This document shows positions 33,001 to 36,000 of a DNA stretch of 64,000 nucleotides, piece after piece. This stretch comes from a virus. Its lineage: Duplodnaviria; Heunggongvirae; Uroviricota; Caudoviricetes. Location: IMG/VR virus record IMGVR_UViG_2877245776_000006, one strand, 5' to 3'. Made by a program: the position numbers. Position 1 is the stretch's first letter, and each line of letters opens with the position of its first letter.

Positions 33001-36000
33001 GCATCACTAAACTGGATAAAGAAGGCGGTGAGGCGTTTCTGGCAATGTGGTCAAAAAAAGCGGGAGTTGATGGTATCACTGCGGGGATCGGGATTGTCGC
33101 CGGAAAAGACAGTGAAGGCAGGCCTGTAAGTCAGGTTGCAATTTCTGCGTCGCAGTTGTTTGTCTTTGACCCGAACAACCCGGATAACACCGCCTATCCG
33201 TTTGCGGTATCAGGTGGCAAGGTTGTGATCCCGAAAGCGATGATTTATGACGCGGTGATTGAAACACTGGTGTCGCGGAAGGTTGTGGCGGATGAGGTAA
33301 AAGCCGGGGTAAGTATCACTTCGCCAGTTATCCGGAGTGCCGTTATTCAGAACGGAAACTTTCAGGTTGATTCTCAGGGTAACCTGAATATTGGAGGCCT
33401 TTTCAGTGTTACGTCACAAGGGCAACTGACAATTCGTTACTCTAATCAGAATGTAGGACTGGTGATCCGCAATGATAAAATTGAGGTTTATGATCAGAAT
33501 GGACGACTGGCTGTTCGCATAGGCAGATTACGCTGATCAGGAGGTGAGTATTGGAATACGGTTTTGCCATTTATAACAGAAATAACGTTAATGTTACGGG
33601 CGTGCTGACTCCGGTATTTTTCCTGGACAGATTTACAGCGGAGTCTGGCTCAAAGACGTACACGAATAAACCCGACGGGAAATCATTGCAGGCTGTATGT
33701 TGTTTATTTCCCTGGAATAATGTATTTGCGGATCGGAAAGTACCGAAGATAACCATTAATGGCAATACGGTGACGTGGTCGAATCTTGAGCAGGGTATGG
33801 GATCTTATATTTATACATTCTGGGGATAAGTGTCATGTATGGTTTGAGCATTATGAAGCCGGATGGCAGCGTATGGATAAGTCCAGGTTTTACGCCGCAG
33901 TGTCTGATCAACAAAGGCACCATACCGGCGACTGAAAAGTCTTTTTTTAAAACATCAATCCCGTCAGGCAAAAGTTGTTTTTTCTTTATCAGAACAGAGA
34001 AGAAGGCCGATGTCATGTACACGCATGAACAGATTGATGGATATCATGCACTAAGGCTTCATGTAATTGTCAGGGGAACGAACCCTGGTGTTACGACGGT
34101 TTATGCTTTCGCGAATATGGTTACTCCACCTTCTGAGTATGGTATCGCCATGTATAACCCGGACGGTGAGATGATTTATCATGGCGAAATGATGCTGCTT
34201 GACGCGAAGTTAATACCTGTTGATATCAAATTTGAAAAGGACCTTGGATATCCATGCGCAATCATGCCTGCACTGGTCGGGTATTATAACTGGAAAAGAA
34301 CTCCTTATGATCGACCGATTTATACCACATCCACTGGTGCTACAGGAAATAAAATATATTCCTGTGAGCATTATTCCGGCGGTGCAACATGGGATATTCG
34401 AAAGCCGTATATAGATAAGGTCCTGGTTATTAATACATCAGTATATGATTAGTTGAAGCGAGTCTTTAATATTCATTTAAAATGTCTAAAAAGATGTATT
34501 ATTAAAAAGTTTAGCGTGTTATCTGAATACAGGATATCTTAAATGAAGAGTATAGCAACACTGGTTGTGTGTGCAATCTCCGGGATTGCCTGTGTAAATT
34601 TATCTGCACATGCAGCAGAAGGAAACCATACAATTTCTCTGGGGTATGCGCACTTTCAGTTTCCGGGACTGAAGGATTTTGTAAAGGATGCGACTGCTCA
34701 TAACAGGGAGACTTTCAGTCATTTCGTCAACAGAAACTACTTTTCTTCATTGGGCGAATATACAGATGGTCGGGTCAGTGGATATGAAGGCAAGGATAAA
34801 AATCCACAGGGCATTAATATCAGGTATCGCTACGAGATAACGGATGATTTTGGCGTTATCACCTCTTTTACATGGACGCGTTCTCTCACTAACTCACAGA
34901 CATTTATTGATGTGCAGTCAGCCGATCATACCAGGAAGATTAAGAATCCGGCAGCTTCTGCCAGAACGGATATCAGGGCGAATTACTGGAGTCTGTTAGC
35001 GGGGCCTTCATGGCGGGTTAATCAGTACATGAGTTTATATGCGATGGCAGGGATGGGCGTTGCTAAAGTTAGCGCTGACCTGAAAATTAAGGACAATATT
35101 AACAGTAGTGGCGGATTTTCTGAAAGCAACAGCACGAAAAAAACCTCCCTTGCGTGGGCTGCAGGTGCACAGTTTAACCTGAATGAGAGTGTTACACTGG
35201 ATGTGGCTTACGAAGGTTCCGGCTCTGGCGACTGGCGCACGAGTGGCGTTACTGCTGGCATTGGCCTGAAATTCTGACCTGTATCCGGTAACCGTTTACT
35301 ACCCGCTGTGATGGCGGGTTTTTTATTGCCCGTACAGGGCAAAAACCGTAAATTATGCGTGGGTGCCTTTCGGCTGATGGCTGGAGGGAGAACCTGAAGG
35401 CCTGATGTGGAAAGGCCCCGAGTCAACCTAACGTTAACCCGAGGCCCTAACACTTCGTACCTTAAGCAAGTAGAAGGTTAGCGCCTCTCTGTAAAAGGAG
35501 TCAAGCGCTATGTCGCAAAAATCGCTTATCACCGTCACAATTTGCATGACGGTTATCTTCACCATCTGGATGTTGCACGGTTCACTGTGTGAGTTCCGGC
35601 TGAATTTGTGGGGAGCGGAGTTTGCGGCGTTCTTACAGTGTAAGCAGTAGGAAAACCGCGACGGGGACGAAAGTCCCCGTCAACTGGTTGCTGAGGTTCA
35701 GCCGATATGGCACCCGTTTCAGGTGAGAGAATGAACGATAAAATTCTCCGGTATATGCAGCGTGTTGTGAGAAATTCCCGCAACCCTGAATTTATGAATG
35801 AAGTTAAAGACGCCTGCCTTAAAAAGCAGGCGTTTTGTTTTGAGGCACCTGATGGCTTTCTGGTGCTGCGTTCTGTGCTCAGTGCTGATGGTATCCCTTA
35901 TGTTCTGGTGTTGCTGGGCGTGTGTACGGGGAGTAACAGCGTTGAGCGTTATCTGCCGGAGGTGAAGACATTAACCCGTCTGGCTGGCGGACGTTGGGCT

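Follow-up and report, generated by a model that had tools for sequence, protein, structure and literature searches.

Which gene occupies the short interval between lom and the next phage gene in a 933W-like Shiga toxin (Stx) prophage, how might it be controlled, and is it new? The interval lies in a stretch of 64,000 nucleotides from the IMG/VR virus record IMGVR_UViG_2877245776_000006 (Caudoviricetes), hereafter the window, in which positions are counted from the first letter of the strand presented (+). The original prediction, made from the sequence alone, was that 35300-35660 holds an unannotated toxin gene of the Hok family, preceded by an overlapping mok frame and an antisense sok promoter and followed by a stem-loop. 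It is highly probable that the interval carries a hok/sok-type type I toxin-antitoxin module, carried there as a moron directly after lom by a 933W-like Stx prophage, that of Shigella phage 75/02 Stx. The locus itself is already known, a typical case from a toxin-antitoxin family that is itself familiar.

The toxin gene and its family

The hok-family toxin gene is an open reading frame (ORF) that begins with ATG and spans 35510-35650 on the plus strand, stop codon included. It encodes a peptide of 46 amino acids (aa), MSQKSLITVTICMTVIFTIWMLHGSLCEFRLNLWGAEFAAFLQCKQ, and both the ORF and its SLCE and AAFL motifs were found where they had been predicted, as was a Shine-Dalgarno (SD) sequence, AAAGGAG, which can be read at 35494-35500 (+), 9 nt 5' of the hok ATG. 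Assignment to the Hok/Gef family is borne out by profile matches. For Pfam HOK_GEF (PF01848), residues 8-44 align to profile positions 6-42 of 42 at E=4e-8, and the score of 33.2 bits exceeds the gathering score of 22; PHROG 251 ('MokW-like host killing') is matched from end to end (E=2.8e-24). The N-terminal helix that is a criterion for Hok/Gef peptides has its counterpart in the hydrophobic stretch LITVTICMTVIFTIWML (residues 6-22), and all seven Hok-conserved positions are represented with equal spacing (M1, C12, T14, L26, C27, E28 and E37), C12, T14, L26-C27-E28 and E37 being spaced as C16, T18, L30-C31-E32 and E41 of the Hok logo. Among NCBIfam models, the best for the peptide is that of HokA (NF007290, E=9e-10), but the score stays below the cut-off of this equivalog model (38.4 versus 89 bits), as does that for the Hok subfamily (22.7 versus 73 bits). 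With HokA of E. coli K-12 the peptide has the C-terminal AAFL..C motif in common, and it differs in its length of 46 aa and in its ending, QCKQ. Judged by these scores, the peptide belongs inside the Hok/Gef family, yet it is no orthologue of any named K-12 Hok.

Conservation of the ORF was assessed in 60 distinct variants from IMG/VR, from GTDB genomes and from genomes of E. coli. Every variant has an intact ORF (45-47 aa), and the median ratio of nonsynonymous to synonymous substitution (dN/dS) is 0.24; compared with a lom-linked allele that is 93% identical, dN is 0 at a dS of 0.295. At the level of sequence divergence, this establishes purifying selection on the toxin ORF. The same data bear on whether the ORF could be a chance small frame in an intergenic spacer, its hairpins being merely terminators of the neighbours. 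The ORF is short, and the hairpin after its stop codon scores as a minus-strand terminator-like site, both of which would fit such an origin. However, the matches to HOK_GEF and PHROG 251 are significant, and the ORF is kept in ~1750 genomes and in unrelated contexts with synonymous-biased change, so that a chance origin is regarded as refuted and retains next to no probability.

The gene is not unannotated in current records. In NC_029120 (Shigella phage 75/02 Stx), the DNA of which is identical over window 35280-35760, a coding sequence at exactly the same coordinates is listed as gp62, 'MokW-like host killing', and the identical peptide in RefSeq E. coli genomes is WP_000078907.1, 'Hok/Gef family protein'. 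Only of older records is the description true: in the 933W record of 1999 (AF125520), the gap between lom and L0129 was left empty. Moreover, the exact peptide is entry 72_1589 in a catalog of 32,532 hok loci and 1,264 distinct peptides, where it is a representative of a 'high-abundance cluster', peptide cluster 72, and it was cloned as pAZ3::72_1589 (plasmid LRP157) for arabinose-induced toxicity assays (Escalera-Maurer et al. 2025-26, preprint 10.1101/2025.08.07.668861). In that work, 42 of the 45 Hok homologues tested were toxic, and the non-toxic ones were 19_179, 60_1482 and 69_1540, hence not 72_1589 (10.1101/2025.08.07.668861). For toxicity the source is the literature, in which the identical peptide is reported as toxic. 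Because the gene is annotated in RefSeq and its exact peptide has been catalogued and tested, the claim of novelty fails. The protein is identical to 72_1589, WP_000078907.1 and gp62, while the RNA anatomy described below is absent from the preprint, in which mok, Sok and mRNA structure were deliberately not analysed (10.1101/2025.08.07.668861). Full-text literature searches turned up nothing of relevance on WP_000078907, the peptide or its old locus tags, and a supplement to an EDL933 ciprofloxacin transcriptome lists the neighbours RS06965 and RS06985 but not the hok gene.

Predicted promoters, antisense RNA and folding of the transcript

In plasmid R1, the hok/mok/sok locus encodes a small membrane toxin of the Hok/Gef type, and a cis-antisense RNA is directed against the leader rather than the toxin start. 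The R1 hok mRNA alternates between two forms, one with its 3' end folded back onto the 5' end and one with a local 5' hairpin. Comparable elements can be recognized in the window. A candidate hok promoter is placed at 35326-35354 (+), with a -35 hexamer TTGCCC (35326-35331), a 17-nt spacer and a -10 hexamer TAAATT (35349-35354). Its score of 8/12 is under the threshold of the consensus scan; both hexamers are conserved, as TTGCCG ... TAGATT, in homologues from other, unrelated settings, and they correspond in alignment to the promoter region of 933W hokW. From this placement, transcription would start near G35361, and the body of the predicted mRNA would cover 35361-35715 (+), as suggested by folding and conservation. 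At its 5' end stands a tac-like element, GGGUGCC-UU-UCGGCUGA (35361-35377, +), for which two alternative pairings are predicted, one with the 3' element and a local one with 35407-35419; at its 3' end stands an fbi-like element, UCAGCCGA-UAU-GGCACCC (35698-35715, +), which is complementary to 35361-35377 and marks the downstream boundary of the module.

RNA folding in search of fbi and tac elements had been proposed in the original prediction, and elements of this type were recognized by prediction and conservation. In the minimum free energy (MFE) fold of 35361-35722 (-155.1 kcal/mol, z=-6.8), the two ends of the RNA are joined by pairing of 35361-35377 with 35698-35715. Of 50 variants, 46-50 keep these pairs, some of which switch between G-C and G-U or between U-A and U-G, and when the full-length structure of the window is laid on the 50-sequence alignment, 92.6% of cells are paired, versus 34-44% in slid controls; at the sequence level, this establishes conservation of the RNA elements. 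In the full-length fold, GGAG of the SD sequence (35497-35500) pairs with CUCU at 35487-35490, which would act as an anti-SD. Both RNAalifold and a fold truncated at the 3' end give an alternative, a local hairpin of 35361-35374 with 35407-35419, in which the hok AUG is freed and 35461-35469 is placed in a hairpin loop. As modeled, this alternation of 5'-3' fold-back and local hairpin follows the tac/fbi logic of R1. The stem-loop expected past the stop codon, GACGGGGACGAAAGTCCCCGTC (GACGGGGACG AA AGUCCCCGUC), is present at 35660-35681 (+), where it is seen in the sequence, the terminator scan and the fold; 98.2% of its cells are paired, and two of its pairs have compensatory changes among homologues.

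On the opposite strand, the antisense sok promoter that had been predicted upstream of hok has a candidate at 35475-35504 (-), recognized by homology to sokW, with -35 TTGACT (35504-35499), an 18-nt spacer and -10 TAACCT (35480-35475). In the alignment, this -10 coincides in sequence and position with that of sokW, and its plus-strand view, AGGTTA, is invariant in all aligned variants. The 'pro-less' primers for sokW, TAGGTTAG to CCGGCTCG, alter that hexamer, and antitoxin activity was abolished (Takada et al. 2021, PMC8621323). The Sok-like promoter is not called by the consensus sigma-70 scan. From it, a Sok-like RNA of ~57-60 nt is predicted at 35411-35469 (-), with a single-stranded 5' end, a hairpin of 14-16 bp (35414-35446) and a final UUU. 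The prediction draws on alignment, the annotated 933W sokW aligning to window 35411-35467 on the minus strand, and on a fold of -34.6 kcal/mol (z=-5.4), in which the hairpin relies on G-U pairs and is followed by UUU. In each of the 14 distinct variants compared, the antisense version of the hairpin is stabler than the sense version (mean -21.1 versus -12.2 kcal/mol), which makes the hairpin, on computed stabilities, a strand-specific signal.

The target of the predicted Sok 5' end is a hypervariable leader segment of 28 nt, 35445-35472 (+), from which the predicted target hairpin derives its loop and stem. Among copies with an identical Hok peptide, its nucleotide diversity is 0.244 versus 0.006-0.028 in the flanks, ~10-40 times more, and it undergoes compensatory changes with 35683-35697. 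From this pattern, the segment looks like a specificity determinant of the antisense RNA, or else a recombination mosaic.

Leader reading frames without an overlapping mok

A mok frame overlapping hok, which had been expected within the ~200 bp upstream, is not present. What the leader holds, at a conserved GATGTGG start (35405-35481, +), are two short ORFs, one from ATG (35405-35431, 8 codons) and one from GTG (35407-35481, 24 codons). They are the truncated, non-overlapping counterpart of mok. The 24-codon ORF ends at TAG 35479-35481, 28 nt before the hok ATG. This TAG could be taken for a recent nonsense mutation; that explanation was rejected, for the TAG sits inside the invariant AGGTTAGCG and the frame was changed by an upstream/downstream indel. 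A 1-nt T insertion at ~35498 improves the antisense -35 from TTGCTC to TTGACT and shifts the frame onto the TAG. Across the 60 distinct variants, a long frame overlaps hok in 22, starting at differing codons. Where the start is conserved (55 variants), the leader ORF overlaps hok in 16 cases and ends at -36 to -27, relative to the hok ATG, in 31. In most variants, the short leader ORF ends just ahead of the anti-SD/SD region. Altogether, leader ORFs reach at least -36 in 47 of the 55, versus 7 of 55 in which a control frame reaches -43 or further, and the unused third frame stops mostly at -59 to -76. This comparison of frames suggests that what counts is translation of the leader as far as the anti-SD (CUCU 35487-35490).

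A mechanism can be proposed by analogy with R1 hok/sok and 933W hokW-sokW, in which the transcript ends, Sok expression, translation coupling in the absence of an overlapping mok and the biological role are inferred. The plus strand encodes a 46-aa inner-membrane toxin with a single helix, which would be made from a stable hok mRNA that starts near G35361. The full-length mRNA would be closed by pairing of 35361-35377 with 35698-35715, a state in which SD and AUG are paired as well and the antisense target is partly hidden. TTGACT-18-TAACCT would drive a short-lived antisense RNA of ~60 nt, covering 35469-35411, which would pair with the leader and block expression, possibly by covering the short leader ORF (start 35405/35407), by provoking cleavage of the duplex, or both. 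Once this RNA is gone, be it through loss of the element, shut-off of transcription or induction of the prophage, Hok would be made and the membrane depolarised.

Translation of R1 hok needs the overlapping mok. It could be hypothesized that hok modules of cluster 72, this one included, work without a classical overlapping mok, and jointly that the hypervariable Sok-recognition segment reflects diversification or recombination that stops cross-neutralisation among co-resident prophage copies. The short leader ORF (35405/35407, GATGTGG) would then be the element blocked by the Sok-like RNA, and the anti-SD pairing of CUCU with GGAG would be opened as ribosomes translate this ORF to a point ~30 nt ahead of the hok ATG. 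This combined proposal is tentative, and we rate it as rather unlikely.

Several observations weigh against the view of the locus as a working hok/sok-type module. No mok frame overlaps hok in this copy in any of the three frames, GTG and TTG starts included, and without one the copy could be translationally silent. A generic sigma-70 scan of 35200-35900 calls no promoter on either strand; both promoter calls therefore rest on homology and conservation. The match to the Rfam sok model (RF01794) over its full length at 35361-35523 (+) in E-value mode (E=5e-5) speaks in favour of the module, but its 33.1 bits are under the gathering score of 59, and no match at the locus reaches gathering level. 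On the 50-sequence alignment, 15 pairs are altered on both sides versus 5-11 in slid controls (among them four in the helix 35459-35472/35683-35697 and the two in the post-stop hairpin), which also favours the module, but these counts are inflated by shared descent, the variants forming few lineages; the core 7-bp tac/fbi helix is invariant and hence gains no support from covariation. No terminator stands directly 3' of the fbi-like element, which here abuts the next gene, and classical 3'-end processing must therefore trim >100 nt or differ. Lastly, all RNA ends and the expression of both RNAs at the locus are inferred.

These points lead to the most serious alternative, a decaying hok remnant from whose native transcript Hok is never translated for lack of mok, like several inactivated chromosomal hok loci. 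Degenerate chromosomal hok loci have been noted (Fozo et al. 2010), and the missing overlap, the frameshifting 1-nt insertion that gives an in-frame TAG and the want of a terminator right after the fbi-like element would all be expected of such a remnant, as would the fact that 38 of the 60 distinct variants also have no long overlapping frame. Decay is difficult to reconcile, however, with an ORF that is intact in every variant at a dN/dS of 0.24, and that has changed only synonymously between lom-linked alleles. Conservation extends to the promoter hexamers, the SD, the antisense -10 and the tac/fbi elements, the reach of the leader ORFs compared with the control frame suggests that leader translation has been retained, and the variation in mok arises in the hypervariable segment and not through general decay. 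Because the other elements and the ORF are visibly constrained, a silent copy is considered improbable, and a hok/sok-type type I module remains the preferred reading.

Known relatives, boundaries and distribution of the module

The experimentally studied Hok system of Stx phages is hokW-sokW of Sp5/933W (Takada et al. 2021, PMC8621323), and the label 'MokW-like host killing' in RefSeq phage records could suggest that the window holds that very locus. Phage group and RNA architecture are shared: both are type I systems of the same group of phages, and alignment, as had been advised for known hok/sok loci, places the window locus colinear with the annotated hokW/mokW/sokW of 933W, with a 5' GGGUGC, AAAGCCCC, GAGGC, AGGUUAGC, a post-stop hairpin and GCACCC in the same order, in addition to the identical antisense -10. 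However, hokW/mokW/sokW is annotated at 58460-58734 of 933W on the opposite strand, ~13 kb off the lom-linked locus at ~45430-45860. HokW has 51 aa (MKQQKAM...DYESEK) (PMC8621323), compared with 46 aa here, and is 36% identical to the window peptide over 42 aa; the hokW sequence was not found in the window. Furthermore, mokW is an in-frame N-terminal extension that starts under sokW, and no equivalent start exists here. Identity with the published hokW-sokW was rejected on the primer and protein sequences of Takada et al. and on the 933W annotation, and can be regarded as refuted, its probability being negligible. In 933W-type phages the lom-linked gene is a second, separate Hok locus; in the window no other was found.

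Comparison with R1 was made through the protein sequence and textbook knowledge and not through a DNA alignment. R1 Hok is 34% identical to the window peptide over 32 aa, and the two systems are alike in toxin family and, as predicted here, in the position of the antisense RNA on the leader and in the alternating fold-back. They differ in that the present locus has no overlapping mok, has its fbi-like element away from the transcript end, and is borne by a prophage and not by a plasmid.

The Ail/Lom gene lies upstream (34543-35277; Pfam Ail_Lom E=1.6e-32) and is followed by an intrinsic terminator with stem-loop and T-run (35301-35325, +), found by the terminator scan, which forms the upstream boundary of the module. 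Among copies in other contexts, homology starts just past this terminator. Homologues of 76-83% identity align with the window only over ~35341-35715 and lie in unrelated contexts, namely beside ogr in P2-like prophages, in the gap between J and tail-fibre genes of lambdoid prophages, and on an enterotoxigenic E. coli (ETEC) plasmid; for those of 80-83% identity, the match is exactly 35341-35715. Since homology in other contexts stops at the promoter and at the 3' element, the cassette is bounded, and from these alignments the module can be described as a self-contained mobile cassette of ~390 bp (~35326-35715), larger than the 35300-35660 first proposed. Matches to the module occur in 1750 of 5426 complete E. 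coli genomes, at up to 9 places per genome. Hok genes had been counted at 12-14 in O157:H7 genomes (Fozo et al. 2010), and hok was found to be enriched in prophages (10.1101/2025.08.07.668861).

Some individual copies illustrate these settings. In E. coli chromosomes and the ETEC plasmid (loci L005-L007, L012), the module is directly downstream of an ogr/Delta-like zinc-finger gene at the end of a P2-like prophage and has its own terminator after it, and in L011 and L013 it stands in place of lom between J and a tail-fibre gene. Two assemblies labelled as Firmicutes, 'Planococcaceae bacterium UBA3378' (L015, DEQA01000038.1) and Vagococcus sp. WN89Y (L017), contain an enterobacterial hok module with a peptide identical to the common E. 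coli P2-prophage variant; contamination or mis-binning of the assemblies is the most likely cause.

The downstream neighbour is a phage ORF of 125-133 aa, depending on its start. It is annotated as a 'hypothetical protein' at 35707-36108 (+), with an ATG start at 35707 that overlaps the fbi-like element. PHROG 610 aligns to it only from residue 9 (profile 1-124 of 124), and because the alignment begins there, the true start is probably ATG 35731 (MNDKILRY...), preceded by GGTGAGAG. Most other copies of the module have a terminator within ~40 nt of the 3' element. In the window, the next plus-strand terminator-like site after this element is at 35815-35832. A strong bidirectional terminator-like hairpin (ACGCCTGC ... 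GCAGGCGT, then TTTGTTTTG) spans 35810-35840 inside the conserved phrog_610 ORF, and would be the first terminator for a hok transcript that reads through.

At a larger scale, the window from 25000 to ~51803, where the phage 75/02 Stx record ends, is 100% identical to this 933W-like Stx phage over the aligned 97%. The match over 25000-49000 comes in two pieces, with 97% covered and a window segment of ~0.7 kb absent from the phage record. Past ~51803, the last 12 kb is other DNA, part of which resembles lambdoid immunity and replication genes (cI, cII, O) of other phages. Rfam matches at gathering level elsewhere in the window are STnc100 at 12390-12588 (+; 141.9 bits) and the anti-small RNA (anti-sRNA) AgvB at 12589-12648 (-; 56.6 bits), both typical of enterohaemorrhagic E. 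coli (EHEC)-type prophages, and three to sRNA-Xcc1 (71-80 bits) at 7101-7184 (+), 50855-50940 (-) and 51392-51480 (-), two of which are near the right prophage end.

For the biology of these phages, the locus matters little beyond correct annotation. By analogy with known systems, its role could be in prophage addiction, in exclusion of other phages, or in lysis, to which hokW-sokW has been reported to contribute. Regulation in this subfamily raises modest questions, through the absence of mok and through the hypervariability of the antisense target. More generally, the Hok complement of 933W-type Stx phages includes this module in addition to the separate hokW-sokW that has been studied, and Hok toxins of Stx prophages may affect lysis timing, prophage retention and exclusion of other phages. 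The effect of hokW-sokW on phage release was twofold (Takada et al. 2021, PMC8621323), and a deletion study that ignores the second locus could therefore underestimate the contribution of Hok.

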